A stretch of 64,000 nucleotides of DNA from an uncultured Acidobacteriota bacterium (GTDB taxonomy: Bacteria > Acidobacteriota > Terriglobia > Acidiferrales > UBA7541). How positions within the stretch are numbered: position 1 is the stretch's first letter; every line of letters begins with the position of its first letter. This document shows positions 3,300-62,841 of the stretch, piece after piece. A program made the translations under genes and the position numbers. A model generated the notes under the pieces. That model was given only the letters and a program-made list of their open reading frames with translations, had not been told where the DNA came from and ran no database searches. The DNA lies in the NCBI GenBank assembly GCA_963803515.1, contig CAWDMQ010000002.1, positions 78,163 through 142,162 of the forward strand, given 5' to 3'.

Positions 3300-4331
3300 T
3301 TATCGAGTGACGTGTTCGCTCGGTACCGCGCGCGGTCGCGATGGGCGTTCCATGTCCTCCATCAAGCGGGCAAACGCCGCAAGGTCGAGCGATTGCTGTC
3401 CGTCCGAAAGCGCGCGTTCCGGGCAAGGATGGACTTCGATCATCAGGCCATCCGCTCCGGCGGCGATCGCGGCGCGGCTCATCGCGGGAATCACGCTGCG
3501 GCGTCCGGTGCCGTGTGAAGGGTCGGCGATAACGGGCAAGTGCGAGAACTCCTTCGCCAACGGGATGGCCGCCACGTCGAACGTGTTGCGCAATTCGGAA
3601 TCAAACGTTTTGATGCCGCGCTCGCAGAGCACCACGTTGGAATTCCCGCCAGACAAAAGATATTCAGCGGCGAGCAGCCATTCCTTGATGGTGGCGGAGG
3701 GGCCGCGTTTGAGCAGCACCGGCAAGCGCGATTGGGCCAGGCGGCGAAGCAGCGGAGAATTCTGCATATTGCGCGCGCCCACTTGCAACATATCCGCATA
3801 TTCCGAGACGACATCCACATCTTCGACGCCCATTACCTCGGTGACGATCGGCAGGCCGGTGGCGTCGCGGGCTTCCTTTAAGAGCTTGAGAGCTTCCACA
3901 CCGAGACCCTGAAAATCGTACGGCGAGGTGCGCGGTTTATACGCCCCCCCGCGGAGAAGCGTAGCGCCGGCTTTCTTGACGCCGTGCGCGACCTCGAGCA
4001 ATTGCTCGCGCGACTCGACCGAGCACGGACCAGCGATCACCACCCACTGCGCGCCGCCAATCAAAACTCCCCCGACGTTCACAACCGTGGGTTCGTGGCG
4101 AAGCTGGCGGCTCACGAGCTTGAAGGGATGCGAAATAGGCACCAGCGCTTCCACGCCCGGGGCCGCTTGCAAGGCCTCCAATTCGCCGCGGCGGCCGTTA
4201 ATTCCCACAGCGCCGATGACGGTGTGGCTCGCGCCACGGATCACGTGCGCCTGGTAGCCGCATTCCTTGATGCGCTGCACGACATGCTCAATCTGTTCTT
4301 CGGTAGCGGTCGGACTCATATTCACGATCAT
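3300..4331 (-). CDS. aroF: 3-deoxy-7-phosphoheptulonate (DAHP) synthase, type I-beta with an N-terminal ferredoxin-like/ACT-like regulatory domain
   Basis: KDO8P/DAHP synthase I-beta motifs ([44 protein letters not shown]). Start set at ATG 4331 (MIVNMSPT), which has GGAGG about 10 nt upstream. The longer ORF reaching 4523 is an in-frame read-through of the leader. Confidence 0.9.
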
Positions 4332-6351: not shown

Positions 6352-7254
6352 ATGATTGGATCCTGTGTTCTCCTTGCACTTTCGTTGTTTCACCCGGTGG
6401 TCGGCCCAGCTCCACGGTCGCAAAATCCGCCCACAGCCCTCAAGAAAAGCGCCCAAGCAAGCCAGCAAAATCCCACTAATAAGCAAAAAGGAGCCAAGCA
6501 GCCGTCGACCGTAGGCCAAAGCAAGTCCCCCGCCAAACCCACTAATCCAAATGCCGAAAACATAGCACACAGCAATCAGCAGGAAATCGTACGAATAGTT
6601 TCTCTCCCCGAAGTCACAGTTGCCAGAGACAAGCCCACCTTCTATGTCTCTATCATTCTCGCTGCTATTGGAATAGCGGGCATTATCATAGCTATTTGGA
6701 CCGTTATTACCATTAAAGATCAAACGGCAGCCACCAAAGACGCTGCTAAGTCTGCCGCTAGGAGCGTTGAGACACTTGTAAATATGGAGCGGGCTTTGCT
6801 CGTACCAGAGGGTTTTGTTAGACCGAGTGAACTGCCTAAAATCCTCAGAACCCCGCAGACCGAAAGATTTGCAATTGAGATAAAAAATTGTGGTCGGACT
6901 CCCGCATGGATCACGGAATGGCGTTGCAGGACTCTGGTCAGTGATAACGAAAACATACTGGGCCTCTTGGACTACAGCTCTCCCCATAGCCACCCTGGGC
7001 GCGGCATGCCGTTTGCTCCAGAAAAAACCCAAAACTTCTTTGCCGACTTGACTACCAATCCAACTGAAATTAGCGAAATAGCCGCTGGTAGGAAACATTT
7101 TTACGTTTATGGATTTGTACGCTATAGGCATGTCTTTAGCGACGAGCCCCATGAAAGCTTCTTTTGTCAGCACTACTTCCAGCACAGTGAAGGCATCGGG
7201 CTCGTGCAATATGGCTGGAGCGTAGAACCACCAGAAGCTAATCGCTACACATAG
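6352..7254 (+). CDS. hypothetical membrane-anchored protein (TM helix plus C-terminal beta-rich domain)
   Basis: The ORF opens at 6328; the first ATG is at 6352. It has a signal/TM segment, a low-complexity P/Q/K/S linker, a TM helix FYVSIILAAIGIAGIIIAIWTVI, then a globular domain (ERALLV...FAIEIKNCGRTPAWI...HFYVYGFVRYRHVF). Preferred over the antisense ORF 6319-7209. Confidence 0.6.
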   Translation: MIGSCVLLALSLFHPVVGPAPRSQNPPTALKKSAQASQQNPTNKQKGAKQPSTVGQSKSPAKPTNPNAENIAHSNQQEIVRIVSLPEVTVARDKPTFYVSIILAAIGIAGIIIAIWTVITIKDQTAATKDAAKSAARSVETLVNMERALLVPEGFVRPSELPKILRTPQTERFAIEIKNCGRTPAWITEWRCRTLVSDNENILGLLDYSSPHSHPGRGMPFAPEKTQNFFADLTTNPTEISEIAAGRKHFYVYGFVRYRHVFSDEPHESFFCQHYFQHSEGIGLVQYGWSVEPPEANRYT

Positions 7255-7538
7255 CGAAATTAGGACACTAGCGGGAATCTACTCTTGTTGACACTGTGGC
7301 GCGAGGACCGATACAGTAGGGAGCGCGTGGAATGATACGAGAAGGGGCACTGCAACGCTGAACCGATTCGAGCATGACGGGTGCGAATTAGATTGGTGAG
7401 CCGCAAGATGCGCTACATGGGTAAAATAGCCGGGACTTGTTCGAAGCGCACGCGAATTACGCCGCCCCTTACGGGGGCGTGGGTATTTTCTGGCGCGGGG
7501 TGCGGCTAGACGGAGATAAAGCCAGCAAGCATCTCGAT

Positions 7539-7573
7539 CCCGCCGCCAGAAAACGACTGGCAGGCGGGTTTTT
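7539..7573 (+). terminator. intrinsic terminator
   Basis: CCCGCC(G)CCAG-7 nt loop-CTGG(CA)GGCGGG followed by TTTTT. It lies 285 nt after the islet gene and 120 nt before asd. Confidence 0.65.
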
Positions 7574-7692
7574 CATTTTATGAAGTGAGATGTGTCCGGC
7601 CGGGTGCTGCGTCGCCTGCACGCGGCGCAACGTTGCAGCAGCAATTTCAGAAAGAATTTCAGACTTACAGCAGCAATTCAGACAAGGATGGT

Positions 7693-8832
7693 ATGGCGCA
7701 AATGACACCGCAAATGAAAGCGAAAATGGCGGGCGACGAAAAATGGCGAGTGGGAATTCTGGGCGCAACCGGTGCCGTGGGCCAGCAGATGATTCAATTG
7801 CTGGCGGAGCATCCCTGGTTCACGATTGCGGAACTGGGCGCGTCGGAGCGTTCGGCGGGCAAGCCCTACCGCACGGCGGTGCATTGGAACCTGAACGGCT
7901 CGTTTCCGAGCAGCGTGGGTAACCTGGTGGTCAAGGCTGCCGCGCCGCCACTCGATTGCGATTTCGTGCTGTCCGCACTGGATTCGGGCGTGGCTGGGCC
8001 CATTGAAGAGGAATTCGCGCGCGCGGGCTATCCGGTCATCAGCAACAGCAAGAACCATCGCATGGCGGAAGACGTGCCGCTGGTAATACCGGAAATAAAC
8101 GCGGATCATCTCGATCTGATCGCGACGCAGCGGTCGCGGCGCGGATTTACCAGCGGCTATCTGGTGACGAATCCGAATTGCTCGACGGTAGGGCTGGCGA
8201 TGGCACTCGCTCCGCTCGATCGGGCTTTCGGGATCGCGGAAGTGTTCGTGGTTACGATGCAGGCGATATCGGGGGCGGGGTACCCCGGCGTGGCGTCACT
8301 CGACATACTGGACAACGTCATCCCGCACATCGGCGGAGAGGAAGAAAAAGTCCAGACGGAGCCGCGCAAAATTCTCGGCCGCCTGGCTGACGGAGCGGTG
8401 ACATTTTCGGAGATGAAGGTGAGCGCACACTGCAACCGCGTGCACGTTCTGGATGGCCACACGCAATCGGTGAGCGTTCGTCTGCGCAGGAAAGCCTCGA
8501 TTGCGGAAGTGCGCAACGCTCTTTCCTCGTTTACGGGCGAGCCGCAGAAGCTGCGTCTGCCATCGGCTCCCGAACACCCGATCGTGGTTACTGAAGATCC
8601 GGACCGGCCGCAGCCACGTCGGGATCGGGATGCGGGGCGGGGCATGTCGGTGGTGGTCGGACGCATCCGGCCCGATGAAATCATGGACTTCAAGTTCACG
8701 TTGTTGGTGCACAACACGATTCGAGGCGCCGCCGGGGCGGCCATCCTGAATGCGGAACTGCTGGCGCAACGCAGCGAGTTGCCGCACCGGGACCGCGTAG
8801 AACAGGGCGTTACGGCGGGACATTCTGCGTAG
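7693..8832 (+). CDS. asd: aspartate-semialdehyde dehydrogenase
   Basis: VGILGATGAVGQ Rossmann start, the active-site region NPNCSTV, and QAISGAGY. Start chosen at ATG 7693 (AAGGA 5 nt upstream); in-frame ATGs through 7726 are also possible, and the ORF opens at 7585. Confidence 0.85.
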   Translation: MAQMTPQMKAKMAGDEKWRVGILGATGAVGQQMIQLLAEHPWFTIAELGASERSAGKPYRTAVHWNLNGSFPSSVGNLVVKAAAPPLDCDFVLSALDSGVAGPIEEEFARAGYPVISNSKNHRMAEDVPLVIPEINADHLDLIATQRSRRGFTSGYLVTNPNCSTVGLAMALAPLDRAFGIAEVFVVTMQAISGAGYPGVASLDILDNVIPHIGGEEEKVQTEPRKILGRLADGAVTFSEMKVSAHCNRVHVLDGHTQSVSVRLRRKASIAEVRNALSSFTGEPQKLRLPSAPEHPIVVTEDPDRPQPRRDRDAGRGMSVVVGRIRPDEIMDFKFTLLVHNTIRGAAGAAILNAELLAQRSELPHRDRVEQGVTAGHSA

Positions 8833-30100: not shown

Positions 30101-30898
30101 TTAGGTGGTGGGCTTGTGTTGCGGCTTGTACAGATGCGCGATGGCCCGTGTCACCCATGAGCGTGGAACCGCGCGCTGCGCTTCCATGCCGAACAGGTTT
30201 TTAAACCCGGAGATGACCATCGGCTTACCGGCGGCGAGAGCCTCGAGTCCCACGCGCGATACTTTTTCGGCGGACTCCTTGGGTCCGCCCATGCTCATGG
30301 TCTGGCCCGCGACCTGTTGAAATTCAGTGGAAGTGCCCCCCGGACACAAAGCGCACACGTGAACACCATGCGGGCGCATCTCTTCGGCCAGCCCCTCCGC
30401 GAGAAGCAAATCGAAGGCTTTGGTAGCGGCATAAGCGCTCAGGTAGGGCACAGATTGAAAAGCGGCGGTGGAGGCCACGATCATCAGATAGCCGGAATGG
30501 CGCTCGACCATGGGCGGAAGAAACAGGCGCGCGAGATGCATGACGGCGACCACGTTCACGCGCGTCATGTCCAGGAGGCGCCGTTCGTCAGCACGGAGAA
30601 ATTCGCCGTTGATCCCAAAGCCGGCGTTGTCGATCAGAATGTCGACGGGCAGGTTTTTCTGTTGCGTGAAACGAAAGATTTCCTCGGGTGCCTGCGGGTC
30701 GGTGAGATCGGCAACAAAAATTTCAGCCTGCACGTGGAATTGGCCCCGAAGTTCGGCGGCCAATTCCGTCAGGCGGTCCGCGCGGCGCGCCGTCAAGACG
30801 AGATTGGCTCCGCCTTGTGCAAGCTGTTTAGCTAGTTCACGGCCAATGCCGGCGCTTGCGCCGGTGACGAGAGCCCATTTTCCACACCAGATGGACAT
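30101..30898 (-). CDS. SDR-family oxidoreductase
   Basis: ALVTGASAGIGRELA cofactor motif and YAATKAF catalytic YxxxK. Start at ATG 30898 (MSIWCGKW); the 406-aa ORF extension is not protein-like. Confidence 0.85.
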   Translation of the reverse strand: MSIWCGKWALVTGASAGIGRELAKQLAQGGANLVLTARRADRLTELAAELRGQFHVQAEIFVADLTDPQAPEEIFRFTQQKNLPVDILIDNAGFGINGEFLRADERRLLDMTRVNVVAVMHLARLFLPPMVERHSGYLMIVASTAAFQSVPYLSAYAATKAFDLLLAEGLAEEMRPHGVHVCALCPGGTSTEFQQVAGQTMSMGGPKESAEKVSRVGLEALAAGKPMVISGFKNLFGMEAQRAVPRSWVTRAIAHLYKPQHKPTT

Positions 30899-31013: not shown

Positions 31014-32744
31014 ATGGAACCGGAACTGTTTCCATTATTTCTGAAAATTGCCGCGCGTAAGTGCCTGGTGGTGGGCGGGGGCAAAATCGCGGAAGCGAAG
31101 ATCGCCAGCCTGGTGCGATGCGGAGCGAAGGTGCGGGTGGTGGCTCCCAGCGCGACCGAGGGTATTCGCAGAGCGGCAGAGGCGGGCGCGATCACGTGGG
31201 AGAGGCGCACGTTTGCGCCGAGCGACCTTGCGGATGTTTTCATGGTGATTGCGGCGACATCGTCTCCGGAACTGCACGAGCAAATTTTCCGACAGGCGCA
31301 GCGGGATGGGATTTTGTGCAATGCGGTCGATGAACCCGAACGCTGCGATTTTTACTATCCGGCGGTGGTGCGGCGCGGAGCCTTACAGATTGCGATTTCG
31401 ACGGGCGGGCGCGCTCCTGCGCTTGCCCAGCGGTTACGGCAGGATTTGGAAGCGCAGTTCGGGGCGGCGTATGGGACGTGGGTTGAAGAACTGGGGCGCG
31501 CGCGCGGCGAATTGATGAATCAGGAGATGGTTCCTGAGGAACGACAGGAATTGCTGCGGGGGATGGTGAGCCACCGAGCGTTCGAGGTGTTCAAGCAGTC
31601 GCTGGGCAAAACGGATGCAGGGGCGGCTTTGCAAGCGAATGGCGGGGATACCGAGAACGATTCGAAGAACGATTCGCAACACGATTCTCAACTCCATGCG
31701 AAGAATGACATGGAGAGTAAGGACCACCGCGGCAAAGTTTATTTCCTCGGTGCCGGGCCGGGCGATCCGGAATTGCTGACGCGCAGGGCCTGGAAAATTC
31801 TGCGAAGCGCCGACGTGGTGTTGCACGATGCACTGGTGGCGCCCGAGGTTATAAAGCTGGCGCGGGAAGGTGCGACGGTGTGCGACGTGGGTAAGCGCTG
31901 CGGGCAGAAATCGATCACCCAGGAGGAGATACACGCGTTGATGATTGCGCATGCTTCGGAGGGGCGCACGGTAGTGCGCTTGCAGGGCGGCGATCCTCTG
32001 ATTTTTGGCCGGGCCGGTGAGGAGATGAGCGCGTTGCAGGCGGCTGGAATTAATTTCGAGATTGTGCCGGGAGTCACCGCCGCTTCGGCGGCGGCGGCGG
32101 CCGTGCGCATCCCGCTGACGGACCGGAGGCTCGCATCGACGTTGATTTTTGCCAGTGCGCACCGGCGGGCAGGGAATGCGCCAGAGAATTCCATGGACAC
32201 ACAAAATGCAGATGAGAGGGGGAGTGGCGGAGCGGCCGGAGCGGCGATGGAAGATGCCGGGGTGGGAGAGGCGGCAACCGAGGATGCTTCGGGGAATGCG
32301 GCTGGAGATACCGCGGAGAATGGGACGGGCAATGCGGCGACAATGAAGAGCGGGGCACGGCAGCGACCAAATGCGGGGCTGCCGGGTGCGTCGGTACTGG
32401 TTGCGTCGCCGAATGTTGGCGGCGCCGGTACCACGCTGGCGATCTACATGCCGGGTTTGAACTATGGCAGGATCGCGCGCGATCTGCTGGAGGCAGGCTG
32501 GGCTGCGGATACGAATTGCGTGGTTGTCTCGCAGGCTTCGACGGCGCAACAACGGGTTTGCCGCGCGCAAATCGGGTCGTTGTCTCAGGCGGAACGGTTA
32601 CCTGCGCCGGCAATACTTATCGTTGGCGACGTGGCGGGAACGGCGTTGGGGAGCGGTTCGGATCAAGCTGCACATGAAGAGAACGGCAGGCAGCCGGATG
32701 AAGGGGCAACAATCGTAACGAACGTGGCTTCTTCTATGAGGTAA
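31014..32744 (+). CDS. cysG: siroheme synthase (precorrin-2 dehydrogenase/ferrochelatase domain fused to uroporphyrinogen-III C-methyltransferase) with low-complexity insertions
   Basis: N-terminal LVVGGGKIAEAKI Rossmann motif. C-terminal SUMT motifs VYFLGAGPGDPELLT and VVRLQGGDPLIFGRAGEE. A linker with three 12-nt tandem repeats (31653-31688) and an insertion of about 60-80 aa rich in A/G/D/E/N (about 32170-32430). Confidence 0.85.
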   Translation: MEPELFPLFLKIAARKCLVVGGGKIAEAKIASLVRCGAKVRVVAPSATEGIRRAAEAGAITWERRTFAPSDLADVFMVIAATSSPELHEQIFRQAQRDGILCNAVDEPERCDFYYPAVVRRGALQIAISTGGRAPALAQRLRQDLEAQFGAAYGTWVEELGRARGELMNQEMVPEERQELLRGMVSHRAFEVFKQSLGKTDAGAALQANGGDTENDSKNDSQHDSQLHAKNDMESKDHRGKVYFLGAGPGDPELLTRRAWKILRSADVVLHDALVAPEVIKLAREGATVCDVGKRCGQKSITQEEIHALMIAHASEGRTVVRLQGGDPLIFGRAGEEMSALQAAGINFEIVPGVTAASAAAAAVRIPLTDRRLASTLIFASAHRRAGNAPENSMDTQNADERGSGGAAGAAMEDAGVGEAATEDASGNAAGDTAENGTGNAATMKSGARQRPNAGLPGASVLVASPNVGGAGTTLAIYMPGLNYGRIARDLLEAGWAADTNCVVVSQASTAQQRVCRAQIGSLSQAERLPAPAILIVGDVAGTALGSGSDQAAHEENGRQPDEGATIVTNVASSMR

Positions 32745-32879
32745 GAACCGGTTGAGCAATGACCTAACGCTGACGCAAAGGCGCGTGGCAATGGCCGGTT
32801 GAGGGGCAGGGCTGGTTGAGGTAAGTGCCGGATGTAGGAAGGTAACCGGCTGGAATCTCTCGCCTTGTGCGGAAATACG

Positions 32880-32907
32880 TTGCATTTGAATGGCTTTCAA
32901 GTATGCT
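32880..32907 (+). promoter_or_regulatory. candidate sigma70-type promoter of the sbp-cysTWA leader
   Basis: TTGCAT (32880-32885), 16-nt spacer, TATGCT (32902-32907). Confidence 0.45.
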
Positions 32908-32926
32908 TGAGCCCGTGAAACTGCAT

Positions 32927-32998
32927 ATGTCGCAAGCCTGCGCGTGTTGTACCCCCTGTTGCCGTTGTGTGTCTTCTGGCGCGAAGGGGCTGACCTAG
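32927..32998 (+). CDS. Cys-rich leader ORF (23 aa) upstream of sbp
   Basis: ATG 32927 to TAG 32998 gives MSQACACCTPCCRCVSSGAKGLT, with 6 Cys codons among codons 5-14. It is homologous to the small ORF upstream of sat. Confidence 0.6.
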   Translation: MSQACACCTPCCRCVSSGAKGLT

Positions 32999-33025
32999 AA
33001 AATTTATCCAAATCAGCGCTCCTTG

Positions 33026-33070
33026 AACCCACCGCCAGAGACGATCTGGGAGGTGGGTTTTTTGTTGTTG
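33026..33070 (+). terminator. intrinsic terminator (attenuator) in the sbp leader
   Basis: AACCCACCGCCAGA-GACGA-TCTGGGAGGTGGGTT followed by TTTTTTGTTGTT, 70 nt upstream of the sbp start. Confidence 0.75.
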
Positions 33071-33140
33071 GGGCATTTTCATGGGACAGGAACGCCGATG
33101 AAGCAGGAACGGCCAAGCACGAACAGGAGAGCGAGAACCC

Positions 33141-34160
33141 GTGAGCGTTAAAAAAATTGTTTTTGCAGCGACTGGAGTCGCGGCGCTAATTTCCCTGTTC
33201 GTTTTTGCCAAGCCATCGGGCAGCAATGCCACACTCCTCAACGTCTCCTACGATCCAACGCGAGAGTTTTACAAGGATTTCAATACGGCGTTCGCCGTGG
33301 CGTGGAAAGCGAAAACCGGCCAGGCAGTGACCGTAAACCAGTCACATGGTGGTTCGGGTACTCAGGCGCGCGCGGTGATCGACGGTTTGCAGGCGGATAT
33401 TGTGACGCTGGCGCTGGCCTACGACATTGACTCGATTGCCGAGCGCGCGAAATTGCTGCCTGCCGACTGGCAGGCGCGCCTGCCGGATCACAGCACACCG
33501 TATACCTCCACCGTGGTGTTTTTGGTGCGCAAGGGCAATGCCAAGCAAATCAAGGATTGGGACGATCTGGTGAGGCCCGGCGTGAGCGTGATTACCGCGA
33601 ATCCCAAAACGTCAGGCGGAGCGCGCTGGAACTACATGGCTGCGTGGGGTTACGCGTTGCAGAAAAATGGCGGGACGGAAGCGACGGCGAAGGGTTTCAT
33701 CGCCACGCTTTACAAAAATGTGCCGGTGCTCGACAGCGGATCGCGGGGCGCGACCGATACGTTTGTACAGCGGGGAATCGGTGATGTTTTGATTGCCTGG
33801 GAAAATGAAGCCAAGCTGGCCATCAAGGAATCGGGCGGAGATAAGTTTCAAATTGTGGTGCCTTCCATCAGCATTCTGGCGGAGCCTCCCGTCAGCATTG
33901 TCGATAAAAATGTGGACCGGCACGGCACGCGCGCGATGGCCCAGGCGTATCTCGAGTATCTGTACACGCCGGAAGGACAGGAAATCGCGGCGCGTAATTT
34001 CTATCGTCCGCGCCTGAAGGCCGTGGCCGACAAGTATGCCGCGCAATTTCCGCAGCTGAAATTGTTCAGCATCGATCAGTTTGGCGGGTGGCAGAAAGTA
34101 CAGAAAATGCATTTTTCGGATGGCGGGGTTTTCGATCAGATTTATCAGCCGGCGCGTTAG
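33141..34160 (+). CDS. sbp: sulfate/thiosulfate ABC transporter substrate-binding protein
   Basis: Signal peptide followed by Sbp/CysP family sequence ([35 protein letters not shown]). AGGAGA 11 nt before the GTG start. Confidence 0.9.
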
Positions 34161-34268
34161 CGCGGAAAATCGCACGCGTGATGGCCTTAAGGGTTCTTGG
34201 TTCGATGGGCGAGTGAATGCCCAATGAATGCTGAATGAGTGAAGGTCAGCCGATGAAGGTGGAAGGTA

Positions 34269-35147
34269 ATGGGGCTGCGGCTAAAAAAACAAAGCGTGCT
34301 GCCGGGGTTTGGCCTGGCGATGGGCTGGACGGTGTTCTACCTGTGCCTGATCGTTCTGATTCCACTGAGCACGATTTTCATGAAATCCGCTTCCATGGGG
34401 TGGACCGCTTTCTGGCAAGTCATCAGCAGTCCCCGAGCGCTGGCGAGTTACCGGCTGAGTGTGGGAGCTTCGCTGATCGCGGCCGCCATCAATGGTTTTT
34501 TCGGGATGCTCGTGGCGTGGGTGTTGGTGCGCTACCGGTTTCCCGGACGGCGACTGCTCGACGGATTGGTGGATCTTCCCTTCGCGCTGCCCACGGCGGT
34601 GGCCGGCATCGTGCTGACCACGATTTATTCGCAAAACGGGTGGGTGGGGGGCCAGCTAGCGAAAATTGGGATCAAGGTGGCCTACACACCGCTGGGCGTA
34701 ATCGTGGCGCTGACATTCATCGGCCTGCCGTTTGTGGTACGAACCATTCAGCCGGTATTGGAGGTGCTGGACGTGGGCGTCGAAGAGGCCGCGGCCAGCC
34801 TGGGCGCGGGGTTATGGCAGACATTCCGGCGCGTGATTCTTCCCGAACTATTTCCCGCATGGATCACCGGGGTCACGCTGGCGTTCGCCAGGTCGCTCGG
34901 CGAGTACGGGTCGGTGGTTTTTATTGCGGGAAATATGCCGATGAAAACCGAGATCACGCCGCTGCTGATTATGATCAAGCTCGATCAATTCGACTATGCG
35001 GGAGCGAGCGCGATTGCGCTGTCGTTTCTGGTGGTTTCGTTTTCGCTGCTGCTTTTGGTGAACGTAATGCAACGGCGGCAAGGTATGGCGACAGCGCTGC
35101 GGTGGTGCCGGTGTTCAGGCCTGCTGAGGAGAATTTGCACGCGATGA
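34269..35147 (+). CDS. cysT: sulfate ABC transporter permease CysT
   Basis: Six-TM MetI-type permease with the EAA loop ([21 protein letters not shown]). Second gene of the sbp operon. Confidence 0.9.
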
Positions 35148-35154
35148 GAGCACG

Positions 35155-36069
35155 ATGACCGGAGTGATTTCCGCGGAACTACCAGCGCGCGCGAAGGCGC
35201 CGGTGGGGGCGCGCATGCATCCCCGGTGGGTGCGCTGGCCGCTGATCGCGGTGTGCTTCGCATTCCTGGGGCTGTTTCTACTGCTGCCGCTCGCCGCGGT
35301 TTTCGCCAATGCGCTGTCGAAGGGCGCGGGGGTTTACTTTCGAGCGCTGTCCGATCCCGAAGCGCTGTCAGCCATACGGCTGACGCTGCTGACCGCGGGG
35401 ATTGCGGTTCCGCTCAACTTGATCTTTGGATTGGCCGCTTCCTGGTCCATCGCGCGTTTTGATTTTGTGGGCAAGCGCGTGCTGATTACGCTGATCGACG
35501 TACCGTTCAGTGTTTCGCCGGTGATTTCGGGCATGGTGTTCGTGCTGCTGTTTGGCGCGCAGGGAGTGTTTGGGCGTTGGCTGATTGACCGCGATATCCA
35601 CATCGTTTTTGCTGTTCCCGGACTGATCCTGGCGACCACGTTCGTTACGTTTCCGTATATCGCCAGAGAACTGATACCCACCATGCAGACGCTGGGAAGC
35701 GAGGAAGAGGAAGCGGCGCTCACGCTCGGAGCGAGCGGCTGGAGCACGTTTTTTCGTATCACGCTTCCGAACGTCAAGTGGAGCCTGCTATACGGCGTCA
35801 TTTTGTGCAACGCGCGGGCGATGGGCGAATTTGGCGCGGTTTCGGTCGTGTCGGGCCACATTCGCGGCCTGACGGATACCATGCCGCTGTACATCGAAAT
35901 TCTCTACAACGACTACCAATTTTCCGCGGCTTTTGCGGTTGCTTCGCTGCTGGCGATTCTGGCGCTGGTGACACTCATCGCCAAGTCCATCGTGGAGTGG
36001 AAGTCCGAAGTGGAAGTTCCAGAAATACAAAAGCTGCCGGCCGAGTATGCCCCGGGGGATGCGTCATGA
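35155..36069 (+). CDS. cysW: sulfate ABC transporter permease CysW
   Basis: MetI-type permease with [21 protein letters not shown]. Its stop overlaps the cysA start (ATGA). Confidence 0.9.
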
Positions 36070-37103
36070 GCATCGAAATTCGCAACGTATCGAAACGATT
36101 TGGACAATTTGAAGCGCTGAAGGACGTCGATCTGCTGATTCCGGATGGCGAGCTGGTGGCCTTGCTGGGACCGTCGGGATCGGGAAAGACGACCTTGCTG
36201 CGCATCATTGCGGGCCTTGATTTTCCGGATCGCGGTGAGGTGGTGTTCGATGGACAGGAAAGCACCAATCGGAAAGCGCGGGAACGCGGCGTGGGGTTTG
36301 TGTTTCAGCATTATTCGTTGTTCCGGCACATGACGGTTTTCGATAACATCGCGTTTGGGTTGAGTGTGAAGCCGAGGAGTACGCGGCCATCCAAAGAGCA
36401 GATCAGCTCGAAGGTTCACGAGTTGCTGCGGCTGGTGCAGCTCGATTCGCTGGCCAACCGTTATCCTTCGCAGCTTTCGGGCGGCCAGCGGCAACGCGTG
36501 GCGCTCGCTCGGGCACTGGCGGTCGAGCCCAAGGTGCTGCTGCTGGATGAGCCCTTTGGGGCGCTGGACGCCAAAGTACGCAAGGAACTGCGTTCCTGGC
36601 TGCGCCGGCTGCACGATGATATTCATGTGACCAGCGTTTTTGTGACCCACGACCAGGAAGAGGCGCTGGAAGTGGCGGACCGGATTGTGGTGATGAACCA
36701 GGGGCGGGTGGTGCAGCAGGGCGCTCCGGAAACGGTTTACCATGAGCCGGCGAATGCGTTCGTCTACAATTTTCTTGGCAGCCTGAATTTGTTTCATGCG
36801 CGGGTGGAAAATGGGGACACGTTTATCGGCGATCCCGCGGCCAGTTCGGCTTCGGCTGGAAAAACGCCCATGGTTTACGTGCGGCCTCACCTGATGCACA
36901 TCGAGCGGTATCCCTTCAGTCAGAATCATTTTCCTGGGAGGATCGTGCACATCAATCCGGCGGGGCCTATCGTGAAACTGGAACTCGAGACCGAGCGCGG
37001 CCACACGATTCAGGTGGAGCTGTCTCACGACCGTTTTCAGGAGCTGCGGTTGTTGAAAGACGATACGGTGTTCGTCAGCCCGCTGGAAATGAGAGTCTTC
37101 TAA
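36066..37103 (+). CDS. cysA: sulfate ABC transporter ATP-binding protein CysA
   Basis: Walker [10 protein letters not shown], signature LSGGQRQR, Walker B LLLDEP and a C-terminal TOBE-like regulatory domain. Start at ATG 36066 (MSIEIRNV); the ORF opens at 35778 inside cysW. Confidence 0.9.
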
Positions 37104-37235: not shown

Positions 37236-37931
37236 CTATTCCTTGACGTGCAGGCCGCATTCGGTTTTGTTGAATCCAGACCAGCGCCCGGCGCGGGGAT
37301 CTTCGCCCGGCTGCACGGGACGCGTGCAGTAGGTGCAGCCGATGCTGGGATAATTCTGATCGTGCAGGGGATTATAGGGCACGCTGTTTTCGCGGATGTA
37401 ATCCCACACCTGGGCGGAAGTCCAGTCGGCCAGCGGATTGAGTTTTACCAAGCCGAATTTCGCGTCCCACTCGAGTTTTTTTGTGTTGGCACGGGTGGGA
37501 GCCTGATCGCGGCGAACTCCCGTAACCCAGGCCCGCAGCCCCGACAGGTGTTTCTTCAGCGGCTCGACTTTACGCACGTTGCAGCATTGATCGGGATGCG
37601 AGGCCCACAATGCGGGGCCGAACTTGTCAGCCTGCGCCTCGGGGGTGAACTCCGGGCGAGTGCGCTCGACTTCGAGGCCGTACTGCTTTTCTACGCCTTC
37701 GATCAGCGCGTAGGTTTCGGGGAAAAGGAAATCGGTGTCCAGTGTGAACACTCGAAACTTTTTGCCCAGGCGTGCTGCGAGGTCGATCAGCACGACGTCC
37801 TCGGCGCCAAAACTGGAGGCCACGCCCAGCGTCTGGTCAAATTGCGACAGTCCCCATTGCAAGGCCTGGCCCGGGTTCCAACTCTCTGCTTCCGCTTGCA
37901 ACTCGATCACCTGCTGTTCGCGCGCGTCCAT
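37236..37931 (-). CDS. cysH: assimilatory adenylylsulfate (APS)/PAPS reductase, Fe-S cluster type
   Basis: PAPS_reduct fold, C-terminal ECGLH, plus the CC...CxxC cluster ligand pattern (DQCCNVRKVEPL, SIGCTYCT) typical of APS-specific enzymes. No APS kinase gene is present in the locus. Confidence 0.85.
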   Translation of the reverse strand: MDAREQQVIELQAEAESWNPGQALQWGLSQFDQTLGVASSFGAEDVVLIDLAARLGKKFRVFTLDTDFLFPETYALIEGVEKQYGLEVERTRPEFTPEAQADKFGPALWASHPDQCCNVRKVEPLKKHLSGLRAWVTGVRRDQAPTRANTKKLEWDAKFGLVKLNPLADWTSAQVWDYIRENSVPYNPLHDQNYPSIGCTYCTRPVQPGEDPRAGRWSGFNKTECGLHVKE

Positions 37932-38020
37932 GCATTCCTCCCGGAGTTAAACTTTACGATTTTTTCTAAGTGCGAATAGGTTGCTGCACGAGTTCAACGG
38001 CCTCGACTGCGCTCGATATT

Positions 38021-39262
38021 TCAATGGTATCGACTGGGCTCGACGGGTTGAACGGGCTCACGGGCCTCCCGCGCCGCGTCGGACAAGATGGCCGCGATTT
38101 CCGGGCGCGTGAATTCCACGGGGAGCGGCAGGCCTTCCCGCAGGCGGCGCCGCACTTCCGTGCCGCTCAGTATCAAGTGATCCGATACGGGGTGAGCGCA
38201 GGTGCGGTTGCTGGCCATCGAGCTGCAGCGGCGGCAGTAGAAAATTTCGTTGAAACAGATGGGTTCGATTCCCAGACCCTCGCTGGCGAGAGAGCGAAGC
38301 AGATGCTGGGCATCGAATGCGCCGTAATAACCGCCCATGCCGGCATGATCGCGGCCCACCAGGAAATGGGTGCAGCCGAAATTTCTGCGCACGACCGCGT
38401 GCAGGACGGCTTCGCGAGGACCGCCATAGCGCATCCAGGCGGGGAGCACGGCAAACAGGACGTTTTGACGCGGCAAATACTCGTTCAGGAGTGCCTGGTA
38501 ACAGCGCATGCGCACGTCGGCGGGGATGTCCTCGGGACGGGTTTCGCCGACCAGCGGATGGAGCAGCAGGCCGTCGGTGACTTCGAGTGCGGTGCGCAAT
38601 ACGTATTCGTGAGCGCGATGCACGGGGTTGCGTGTTTGAAAGCCGGCCACGGTCTTCCACCCGCGCTGCGCCATGGCGGCACGCGTTTCACGAGGAGTGA
38701 GCCAGTGTTCATCAAGGCCCAGCGCCGCGGTATCGCCAAACCATTCGATTTTGCCTGCGAGCGAAACGTCGCCCCCGCTCAAGAAACCCGCGACGCCAGG
38801 GTGGGCCGCTTCGGGGGTGCCGAACAGCTTCTTCGCCCAGTCGAGTTGCGGGATTGCGAATGACTCTTCGAAGTGGAGAATGGCGAGTGGCTGACCATTA
38901 TATTTGAGCGTGACATCAGTGTGCGGCCGCAGGGCTTTGGCATTCGCGGCCTCGGTCTGCAGGAGGATGGGGAACGGCCAGACCTTCCCATCGGGCAAAC
39001 GCATATTTTCAACGATGCCGGCCGACGTCTGGAAATCGGTGAAGCCTTCGAGGGGGCTGAAGGCGCCGGTGGCGAGGAGTAGCAGGTCGCTCGCGGCGCG
39101 GGAATTCAATTCGACGGCGGGCAGATGGGCGGCGCGGGCGATGGTCTCCGGTTGAGCTTCCTTGGGAACGACGCGATCAACCAAGTTATCCGTGCGCAAG
39201 TTATTCGTATGGGTGTTGGTATTGCTCTGGGTGTCAGCGGGATTTGCGGATACGGTTTCCAT
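38021..39262 (-). CDS. sat: sulfate adenylyltransferase (ATP sulfurylase)
   Basis: QTRNPVHRAHEY and VGRDHAG motifs, with a PUA-like N-terminal domain. GGAGA 12 nt before ATG 39262. Confidence 0.9.
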   Translation of the reverse strand: METVSANPADTQSNTNTHTNNLRTDNLVDRVVPKEAQPETIARAAHLPAVELNSRAASDLLLLATGAFSPLEGFTDFQTSAGIVENMRLPDGKVWPFPILLQTEAANAKALRPHTDVTLKYNGQPLAILHFEESFAIPQLDWAKKLFGTPEAAHPGVAGFLSGGDVSLAGKIEWFGDTAALGLDEHWLTPRETRAAMAQRGWKTVAGFQTRNPVHRAHEYVLRTALEVTDGLLLHPLVGETRPEDIPADVRMRCYQALLNEYLPRQNVLFAVLPAWMRYGGPREAVLHAVVRRNFGCTHFLVGRDHAGMGGYYGAFDAQHLLRSLASEGLGIEPICFNEIFYCRRCSSMASNRTCAHPVSDHLILSGTEVRRRLREGLPLPVEFTRPEIAAILSDAAREAREPVQPVEPSRYH

Positions 39263-62137: not shown

Positions 62138-62841
62138 TCACACCTCGGGAGGCACACGCCTGAGCCAGTTCTTCAGGGAGACGTCAACAAACTGATCCGC
62201 CTTGAACATTTCCAGAAAAATGGCGTCCGTGTTGCCGGTGTTCTCGATGTTCTCGATGTAATGACCAGCAAGCCTCGGCACGAAACCTACATCGTTGGCA
62301 TTGAAGTCCAGAGTGCGTGCTCTTCCCTCGTTCAGGACTATGGTCATGCGTCCTTTGCCGGCAAGCCAGAACTGCAATTCGCGCACGGCTGGAGGGTTAA
62401 GAGTGACGACCACGGAGGCGACGTTCTTCGAGACGGGGAAATTACGCGAGTCCACGATGCGGACTTCGCCTCCGGCTGTTTTTCTCGTCGTGTCCATGGC
62501 CGACATCTTGAACGTATATTGGATAGGAGATTCCACACGTTGTCCACCGATTGCTGCCTTGTCTTGCGGAGAGATAGAGGAAGGTCTGCCGGAAAAATGT
62601 AGAGCTCTAGTGTTTGCAGTTTGGCGATAGCGGCCTTGCCGATGCCGAAGTTTTTCTCCGAGACCTCTGGCGGCGTGTGCGCGATAAGCTCGGAAAGGAG
62701 GAACGTGCCGTCTTCCGCGAAGTCACCTTCATCGAACACCAGCAGGACCTCGCATCCGTACGGCTCAAGTCCCTGAATGGAATGTGGAAAACCCGCGGGA
62801 AACAGCCATAGGTCGCCGGTGCCGATGTCATCGATGAACAT
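62138..62841 (-). pseudogene. bicupin oxalate decarboxylase/oxidase-family remnant (5'-truncated, frameshifted, internally deleted)
   Basis: ORF 62344-62841 starts mid-domain (FIDDIGTGDLWLFPAGFPHSIQG...LIAHTPPEVSEKNFG...ELYIFPADLP). ORF 62138-62536 holds cupin 2 in another frame, but RELQFWLAGKGRM lacks the His-rich metal site (compare RELHWHP....W.Y...G), and the protein stops early at ..NWLRRVPPEV. Confidence 0.7.

Follow-up and report, generated by a model that had tools for sequence, protein, structure and literature searches.

What matches the import of sulfate to the supply of cysteine in the Acidobacteriota, a phylum which is among the most abundant in soils, of which few members have been cultured and whose gene regulation is, to our knowledge, almost unexplored? 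The question is raised by the leader of the operon sbp-cysTWA in a 64,000-nucleotide (nt) stretch of DNA from an uncultured member of the Terriglobia (Acidiferrales, UBA7541; assembly GCA_963803515.1, contig CAWDMQ010000002.1, positions 78,163 to 142,162), referred to below as the window. Between positions 32880 and 33140 a promoter-like site, a small open reading frame (ORF) rich in cysteine codons and a GC-rich hairpin with a T-run follow one another ahead of sbp, and a first reading made from the letters alone (the sequence-only reading) had interpreted this arrangement as leader-peptide attenuation of the trp/his type, keyed to the charging of Cys-tRNA. Having analyzed the elements of the sequence and how far they are conserved, which sulfur genes accompany them, how the RNA can alternatively pair and whether paired positions covary, we regard it as likely that the leader is a ribosome-mediated transcription attenuator which reads cysteinyl-tRNA, gates sbp-cysTWA and belongs to a regulon-wide family of the Terriglobia. 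The trp/his logic is supported by a paralogue ahead of sat, by orthologues, by metagenome loci and by a covarying antiterminator.

Direct reading of the window finds the promoter-like site, the small ORF, the hairpin and the T-run all in place (Table 1). The Cys codons of the ORF begin at 32939, 32945, 32948, 32957, 32960 and 32966 and include two CC doublets, and a six-frame scan of the 64 kb ranks this ORF first for Cys density (6 in 10 codons), with the ORF of a second leader, located in front of sat, as the runner-up. The hairpin at 33025-33060 has a folding energy of -22.8 kcal/mol (z = -2.9, 2 of 200 shuffled sequences being equally stable), and directly 3' of it UUUUUUGUUGUU extends to 33070, with the start codon of sbp, GTG 33141, 71 nt further and an AGGAG at 33125-33129 ahead of this gene. 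Two copies of the terminator pattern CCCACC-N(10,34)-GGTGGGTTTT are present in the window, where 0.00 would be expected. Since the Cys density is the highest of the window, its runner-up is the sat leader and the terminator pattern is in such excess, chance is excluded as the origin of the element at 32880-33140.

The promoter-like site aligns with TTTACA-17-TATATT of L001 and L002, two of the orthologous sbp loci described below. As to the small ORF, which is absent from the calls of the public gene caller, the sequence-only reading had given it 23 codons, from ATG 32927 to TAG 32998, corresponding to the translation MSQACACCTPCCRCVSSGAKGLT. This frame is present as described, but it remains open 5' of the ATG and has an in-frame GTG at 32915, 7 nt past the -10 box and at the position of the GTG of L001 and L002, where a GTGAA motif is invariant. 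Because this GTG lies so close to the -10 box and is conserved in both loci, the ORF is probably leaderless and 27 codons long, its leaderless status being deduced from promoter geometry only.

A second element of the same design was found on the opposite strand, ahead of sat-cysH, and the 5' arm of its terminator is the same as that of the sbp leader. Therefore, both convergent sulfate-assimilation operons of the window carry a Cys-rich leader and a terminator. The sat leader, which is part of the seed of a covariance model (R1) of the family, scores 74.6 bits with it. Pfam domains agree with the gene neighbours named in the sequence-only reading: SBP_bac_11 for sbp, BPD_transp_1 twice for cysT and cysW, and ABC_tran with TOBE and CysA_C_terminal for cysA, the start of which is uncertain within the ORF 35778-37103. 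For sat and cysH the domains are ATP-sulfurylase with PUA_2 and PAPS_reduct, respectively.

The family extends well beyond the window, as inferred from a metagenome scan with the terminator alone (CCCACCGCCA-N(8,26)-GGTGGGTTTTTTG), which returned at least 120 loci. Among the matches listed, to which the family counts of this paragraph refer, 79% have an ORF with at least 4 Cys in 12 codons no more than 130 nt upstream, against 1.0% of control positions on the same contigs, and when at least 5 Cys in 12 codons are demanded the proportions are 51% and 0.1%. The ORF ends 26-32 nt ahead of the terminator, typically as ...CC.CC..VSSGAGRLxx followed by the stop. The downstream genes encode rhodanese-type sulfurtransferases (40) and cysD-like PAPS_reduct proteins (39), followed by cysG/siroheme synthase (7), sulfite reductase (4), TauE (3), NMT1/sulfonate-binding protein (3), an ABC ATPase (1) and sat (1), a set functionally equivalent to the CysB regulon. 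Leader length is 24-35 codons, with 3 to 10 Cys codons per 12, whose number and spacing vary freely. An in-frame ATG or GTG is located 6-10 nt (mode 6) past a -35/-10 pair in 78 of 115 leaders; because the start codon is this close to the -10 box the mRNAs should be leaderless or nearly so, and the family ORFs are probably leaderless. The Cys codons of the leaders L081-L200 are mostly TGT (279 against 157 TGC, or 64%), a bias opposite to that of 14 long ORFs of the window (63 TGC and 16 TGT, or 80% TGC), which means either that the wobble-read codon is favoured in the sensor or that RNA structure constrains the third position.

Two groups of metagenome loci depart from this description. In a sub-family found before cysD-like genes (L081, L082, L088, L097, L126, L143, L145, L162, L177 and L194) the leaders read M..(V/I)(Q/R)M.GVCCCPHPTVTAAASCLD.KPAF and stop, with only a CCC run and with GUCUUGUUUGG in place of the CUGGCG strand, and they score only about 37 bits with model R1. 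At L115 and L173 the terminator is present without a Cys-rich ORF, L115 standing ahead of an aspartokinase-like fragment.

Among 80 sbp loci scanned (one genome per species), a short ORF rich in Cys codons and an intrinsic terminator immediately precede sbp in L001, L002, L006, L008, L009, L010, L011 and L012, which are Terriglobia or other Acidobacteriota metagenome-assembled genomes (MAGs). Conservation of the small ORF and hairpin in relatives, a check that the sequence-only reading had suggested, is thus observed ahead of sbp in eight genomes. The terminator is near-identical in L001 and L002, and L002 also has a leader ahead of sat, in the same sat-cysH arrangement. Beyond the Cys run the leader peptides of these orthologues share little, and two unrelated terminator sequences follow the same logic: that of L006-L012, GCGGCCCACGA...TCGTGGGCCG (also written GCGGCCCACGA...TCGTGGGCCGUUUGCUUUU), is unrelated to the type of the window, and the 3' part of the corresponding leaders bears CGUGGGC, a copy of the terminator 3' arm which is able to pair with the 5' arm. 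A compensatory change is seen in L006, where CAUCGU in the leader goes along with ACGAUG in the 5' arm. No Cys leader was found within 600 nt of sbp in L003 and L004 (Acidobacteriaceae), L005 (an unclassified bacterium MAG), L013 and L014, nor in the Bryobacteraceae and non-Acidobacteria loci scanned, so that at sbp the Cys leader is restricted to a clade. A Vicinamibacteria MAG (L059, 1913-2090, + strand) has a CCCCCC leader (MPSTRIARMCCCCCCRE... / MPSTRIARMCCCCCCREARKG...) ahead of a cysH-like gene and sat, which is unrelated in sequence to the family and has a strong terminator of its own (-25.6 kcal/mol); the same logic therefore recurs in another acidobacterial class. In L006 and L008-L012 a dyad GTCTA-N11-TAGAC (within ATAATGTCTATCATATTAGTAGACTTA) is conserved about 60-30 nt before the leader start codon, overlapping the -35 region of the sbp-leader promoter (for example L012, ~6990-7020). 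Because it resembles the T-N11-A box of LysR-type regulators, a protein regulator may act on top of attenuation in this clade.

The pairing on which a switch would depend had been recognized in the sequence-only reading, which noted that TCTGGCG (32975-32981) in the small ORF is the exact complement of CGCCAGA (33033-33039) in the terminator 5' arm. The complementarity is confirmed, and the helix is even longer than claimed, comprising 10 bp with one bulge. Throughout the family (U)UCUGGCG is located just 3' of the Cys run, and its partner is CGCCAGA in the terminator 5' arm. Over 95 members CUGGC is conserved to at least 90%, 70 of 90 leaders have a distance of 26 nt from the C of CUGG to the last base of the stop codon, and a GGG farther 3' can pair with the CCC that opens the terminator arm. 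The next outward pair (x2:y2) covaries, being UA in 32 cases, CG in 27, UG in 10 and GC in 3, with 78% paired against 58 ± 3% for permuted partners. Nested in the antiterminator helix is a second hairpin which encloses the stop codon. A helix across the stop codon was found in 69 of 70 family members, a count made without shuffle control, and its stems differ in sequence among members, with a mean folding energy of -11.6 compared to -9.1 for shuffled sequences, i.e. 2.4 kcal/mol more stable.

The structure of the antiterminator state, in which the antiterminator and the stop hairpin were specified by hand, was then evaluated by pair counts and by the covariance model. In a MAFFT alignment, standard pairs occupy 86.4% of its cells against 34-50% in slid registers. 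In an alignment guided by the covariance model, and hence fitted to the very structure it tests, the corresponding values are 87.7% and 37-49%, the covariation score reaches 0.150 compared with 0.094 ± 0.005, and 6-14 double changes are seen at each pair of the stop hairpin. RNAalifold applied to the MAFFT alignment A4 recovered only the outer terminator stem, without covariation.

A third leader in the window, upstream of asd (Pfam Semialdhyde_dh and Semialdhyde_dhC, aspartate-semialdehyde dehydrogenase), has a sensor of the Thr/Ile type and shares the strand UUCUGGCGCGGGG and the stop hairpin with the Cys family. Model R1, of whose seed it is not part, finds it at 7455-7581 with 47.8 bits (E = 1e-7). 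In the metagenomes, L133 (~3640-3743, - strand) and L146 (2584-2689, + strand) have Thr-rich leaders, e.g. MTLSITQTTRITVCTTTSTSMRITCLLGEGTC and stop, with the same CCCACCGCCA terminator, upstream of aspartokinase. Because these Thr-type leaders (asd, L133 and L146) share it, the 3' platform appears to be a module which is employed repeatedly with different sensor codons, these determining its specificity.

Using RNA folding we have analyzed which of the two structures would be adopted, and at what position of the ribosome. When the nascent RNA is folded up to 33044/33045, i.e. with the terminator 3' arm withheld, the minimum free energy (MFE) structure is the antiterminator around the hairpin 32984-33024 (-24.1 kcal/mol), so that the mutually exclusive folds which the sequence-only reading had proposed to look for are indeed obtained. 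The effect of translation was modelled in 12 leaders by masking a 28-nt ribosome footprint on each Cys codon or on the stop codon and folding the remainder. Each of the 12, folded without the terminator 3' arm, forms pairs between the 5' arm and the stretch of the ORF that directly follows the Cys run. In every case this antiterminator pairing is weaker for a ribosome on the stop codon than for one on early Cys codons, dropping from 0.69 to 0.20 in L001 and from 0.70 to 0.09 in L009. The sat leader retains the antiterminator even in its full-length MFE structure.

From these elements we infer a transcription start, translation of the ORF, stalling, a kinetic choice between structures and a response to cysteine, which would combine as follows. 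Transcription would start about 7 nt past the -10 box, so that the mRNA begins at or next to GTG 32915 and is translated as a leaderless message. With Cys-tRNA scarce, the ribosome would stall on the first five of the six Cys codons (32939-32962) and leave GUCUUCUGGCG free to capture CGCCAGAGAC as it emerges, the stop-codon hairpin closing the loop between the two; with the antiterminator formed there would be no terminator, and the polymerase would read into sbp. With Cys-tRNA plentiful, the ribosome would reach the stop codon, which lies 15 nt after the CUGGCG strand in the sbp leader and about 17-18 nt after it in most family members, melt the stop hairpin and cover or crowd the CUGGCG strand. 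The hairpin at 33025-33060 could then form, and transcription would end in the U-run.

Table 1. Proposed attenuators of the window, their parts and the operons behind them
Feature	Position	Strand	Remarks
Promoter-like site, sbp leader	-35 TTGCAT 32880-32885; -10 TATGCT 32902-32907	+	spacer 16 nt; direct reading
sbp-leader ORF, (V/M)KLHMSQACACCTPCCRCVSSGAKGLT and stop	predicted start GTG 32915, alternative ATG 32927; stop TAG 32996-32998	+	
Sensor tract	32939-32968	+	6 Cys in 10 codons: TGC, TGT, TGT, TGT, TGC, TGT
Antiterminator 5' strand GUCUUCUGGCG	32971-32981	+	pairs with CGCCAGAGAC 33033-33042, 10 bp and one bulge
Stop-codon hairpin AAGGGGCUGA...UCAGCGCUCCUU	32984-33024	+	nested in antiterminator helix
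Intrinsic terminator, sbp leader	hairpin 33025-33060, U-run to 33070	+	5' arm contains antiterminator 3' strand 33033-33042
Presumed regulated operon sbp-cysTWA	33141-37103	+	sbp 33141-34160; cysT 34269-35147; cysW 35155-36069; cysA end 37103
Paralogous Cys attenuator	39561-39350	-	ahead of sat-cysH
sat-leader promoter	TTGACT 39561-39556; TAGACT 39538-39533	-	spacer 17 nt; 8 nt to ATG start
sat-leader ORF, MFLHLTKSCNRCPGSCCACCRCLAASSGKAR and stop	39524-39429	-	
sat-leader terminator	hairpin 39397-39361, U-run to 39350	-	CCCACCGCCA...GGTGGGTTTTTTG
Operon behind sat leader	37236-39262	-	sat (ATP sulfurylase) 39262-38021; cysH (PAPS reductase) 37931-37236
Third attenuator, Thr/Ile-type sensor	7417-7573	+	upstream of asd (ORF 7585-8832)
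asd-leader ORF, MGKIAGTCSKRTRITPPLTGAWVFSGAGCG and stop	7417-7509, or from ATG 7408	+	not Cys-rich
asd-leader terminator	7539-7568 plus U-run	+	CCCGCCGCCAGA type

Upstream of the sbp leader lies cysG (siroheme synthase; true start ATG 31015, stop 32744), which in the window is without a leader of its own and is divergent to a minus-strand SDR-like gene (30101-30897). In L001 (8019-8141, + strand) and L002 (7981-8091, + strand) cysG is preceded by a leader with just two Cys codons (MWECRHNACLAGAVLV and stop), whose score of 33-37 bits makes it a weak family member. A further Cys-rich frame of the window, CCRCSRCSRC at ~62230-62260 (+ strand), with 5 Cys in 10 codons, was taken as chance: it lies inside longer overlapping ORFs, has no visible terminator and is probably an off-frame artefact of a coding region.

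Several observations weigh against the attenuator as described. The sbp-leader promoter agrees with the consensus at 7 of 12 positions and was not called by a simple promoter/terminator consensus scanner, which also overlooked the bulged terminator; both were judged by direct reading, folding and conservation. The start codon of the sbp-leader ORF is ambiguous (GTG 32915 or ATG 32927) and has no Shine-Dalgarno (SD) sequence, and the hairpin at 33025-33060 could also terminate cysG transcripts. As regards folding, the sbp leader of the window discriminates weakly between ribosome positions (0.52 versus 0.40), and its last Cys codon, at 32966, is so near the antiterminator strand that a ribosome stalled there covers part of it. 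At equilibrium the terminator prevails over the antiterminator in this leader (-38.6 versus -27.5 kcal/mol), with a probability of terminator pairs of 0.96-0.97 at every ribosome position, which implies that the switch must be kinetic, as in classical attenuators. Also, the leaders have no convincing 1:2 hairpin, a feature which is typical of trp-type attenuators but not universal, and because of this an untranslated leader would, unlike trp, default to read-through. A candidate 1:2 pause or anti-antiterminator hairpin over the first Cys doublet was rejected, having -3.8 kcal/mol against -3.1 for shuffled sequences and being absent from the leader of the window. Finally, the covariation counts ignore phylogeny, and the outer terminator stem was fixed by the search pattern and is therefore not independent evidence.

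Among other explanations, the one that survives best is translational attenuation as in mycobacteria, alone or beside termination, in which the leader would pair with the sbp ribosome-binding site and a stall on Cys codons would open it. The full-length MFE structure does pair the SD and start region of sbp (33124-33143) with leader nt 32926-32940 at a probability of about 1, and the only experimentally dissected Cys small ORF (sORF) acts by SD sequestration. However, this pairing is not conserved, the SD partners being local or weak in L001, L002, L009 and L010, and the fold of the whole region of the sbp leader is not unusual (z = -1.4). Every member, moreover, has a hairpin and U-run 70-90 nt upstream of the SD, which SD sequestration does not need. 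The SD pairing of the sbp leader is thus probably incidental, and we consider this mechanism unlikely.

Less probable still is that the product of the Cys-rich ORF is a micropeptide with a function of its own (metal- or redox-active, or the precursor of a modified peptide) or that the leader RNA acts in trans, the link to sulfur genes reflecting co-expression. Cys-rich peptides of 24-35 amino acids can bind metals, trans functions are reported in Sinorhizobium for the trpL leader peptide and attenuator RNA, and the C-terminal motif SSGAGRL looks conserved. Yet the peptides of different clades are unlike outside the Cys run, and the C-terminal constraint is at the nucleotide level: of 95 sequences, 92 have C and 3 have U as the last base of the Gly codon, either of which pairs with G, and the last base of the preceding Ser codon covaries with the terminator. 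Since these bases are fixed or change in step with the terminator, the conserved SSGAG reflects constraint on the RNA, and selection on SSGAGRL as a peptide was rejected. Besides, the same 3' part occurs with Thr-type leaders ahead of asd and aspartokinase, and a terminator stands between the small ORF and the operon. A peptide function or a trans role of the leader may nevertheless exist in addition to attenuation.

A leader RNA controlling the terminator by binding a protein or a ligand (a riboswitch, or a TRAP-like binder of UGU repeats), with the reading frame incidental, we hold to be very improbable. The UGU/UGC repeats could be a protein-binding motif and the leader RNA is partly structured and conserved, but the TGY triplets are locked in one frame, from a promoter-adjacent start to a stop whose spacing from the antiterminator strand is constant. 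Both synonymous Cys codons are used, the number and spacing of Cys codons are free, and the platform is also found with non-Cys sensor tracts. Also, an Rfam cmscan of 32000-34000 with E up to 10 gave nothing relevant, its one 12.7-bit match, to RT-15 within sbp, being a chance match.

Finally, a chance ORF between an ordinary promoter and an ordinary cysG terminator, which is suggested by the fact that no terminator was noted between the cysG stop at 32744 and 33025, so that the hairpin may end cysG transcripts, is effectively refuted by the recurrence of the element before sat on the other strand, in eight related genomes and at more than 100 metagenome loci with different upstream neighbours, as well as by the Cys enrichment over control positions.

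If the Cys-tRNA-reading attenuator is accepted, sulfate uptake, activation and reduction, siroheme synthesis and the use of thiosulfate and sulfonates would be coordinated by pausing on Cys codons and not by a CysB- or CymR-like protein. A wider proposal can be made only tentatively: that a single modular cassette (leaderless ORF, CUGGCG antiterminator strand, stop-codon hairpin at fixed spacing and CCCRCCGCCAGA terminator) regulates much of the amino-acid and sulfur metabolism of the Terriglobia, re-targeted by swapping its sensor codons, Cys for the sulfate-assimilation regulon and Thr/Ile for asd and aspartokinase, with the ribosome in place of CysB-type factors as master regulator of sulfur and the cassette spreading by duplication within genomes. 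One expression platform with exchangeable sensor codons would, if real, illustrate how attenuators evolve and multiply. In practical terms, covariance model R1 or the plain terminator pattern can be used to annotate these elements and the sulfur regulon in metagenomes, and unannotated small ORFs account for 'empty' leaders of 250-400 nt in these genomes.

The principle is familiar, and what is new is the cysteine specificity, the phylum, the regulon-wide use and the modular platform. With the classical attenuators of Proteobacteria (trpL, hisL, leuL, thrL, pheL and ilvL, the Yanofsky model) the family has in common that codons for the end product stand in a short ORF, that antiterminator and terminator are mutually exclusive and that the position of the ribosome would decide between them. 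Unlike these, the acidobacterial leaders would sense cysteine, are apparently leaderless instead of initiating at an SD, have no convincing 1:2 hairpin and enclose the stop codon, which keeps a constant spacing from the antiterminator strand, in a conserved hairpin. Also, one sequence-conserved 3' platform, without a match in Rfam, serves many paralogous leaders, those of the Thr type included. Sulfur assimilation is otherwise controlled by CysB (a LysR-type activator), CymR, S-box/S-adenosylmethionine (SAM) riboswitches and Cys T-boxes, the T-boxes reading tRNA charging and acting via a terminator/antiterminator pair. The targets are shared with these controls, namely sulfate transport, activation and reduction, siroheme synthesis, and thiosulfate and sulfonate use. 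In contrast to CysB, CymR and T-boxes, the sensor proposed here is the translating ribosome, without a regulator protein or a tRNA-binding RNA domain.

Leaderless leader peptides have been predicted in Deinococcus deserti, including, ahead of cysS, a peptide of 10 amino acids of which two are Cys (de Groot et al. 2014, PMC4007540). Common to both cases are the leaderless transcript, first codons enriched in the relevant amino acid and the proposal of attenuation. The Deinococcus case, by contrast, is a single one, with two Cys codons, predicted from the mapping of transcription start sites, and neither a sulfate-assimilation regulon nor a conserved platform was described. Attenuators predicted in Acidobacteria have almost no assigned function (Naville and Gautheret 2010), and our full-text literature searches yielded no such case for Acidobacteria, and none of a Cys attenuator of sulfate assimilation that works through a terminator.

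The closest counterpart is found in the Actinobacteria, where Cys-rich leader peptides were predicted before cys operons, with terminators missing (Seliverstov et al. 2005, PMC1262725). The sequence-only reading had stated that Cys-rich leaders were at most suggested computationally, which is not correct, as there is experimental proof of Cys-codon attenuators in mycobacteria: at six loci of M. smegmatis, polycysteine leaderless sORFs attenuate in response to cysteine, the dissected case working by SD sequestration, and the term 'ribulon' was coined for such a regulon (Canestrari et al. 2020, Mol Microbiol 114:93, bioRxiv 10.1101/834739). In both phyla a short ORF with a Cys run lies at or near the 5' end of the transcript ahead of several cysteine or sulfur operons, and pausing on Cys codons would coordinate a multi-locus regulon without a dedicated regulator protein. 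The sbp leader also has the features by which the mycobacterial sORFs are defined (a leaderless ORF with a 5' RUG and at least two consecutive Cys codons), with its two CC doublets and a GTG 7 nt after the -10 box. The mechanisms differ in that, in the dissected mycobacterial case, the stalled ribosome opens a duplex which sequesters the SD of the next gene and no conserved terminators were found, whereas in the acidobacterial family a strong intrinsic terminator and a covarying antiterminator are conserved and SD sequestration is not. Compared by description, an origin independent of the actinobacterial elements seems likelier, given the different phylum and leaders that are too short and variable. 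If correct, these results would extend the mycobacterial ribulon to a second phylum and to a classical terminator mechanism, the family combining the classical attenuator and the mycobacterial Cys ribulon in a way not described before.

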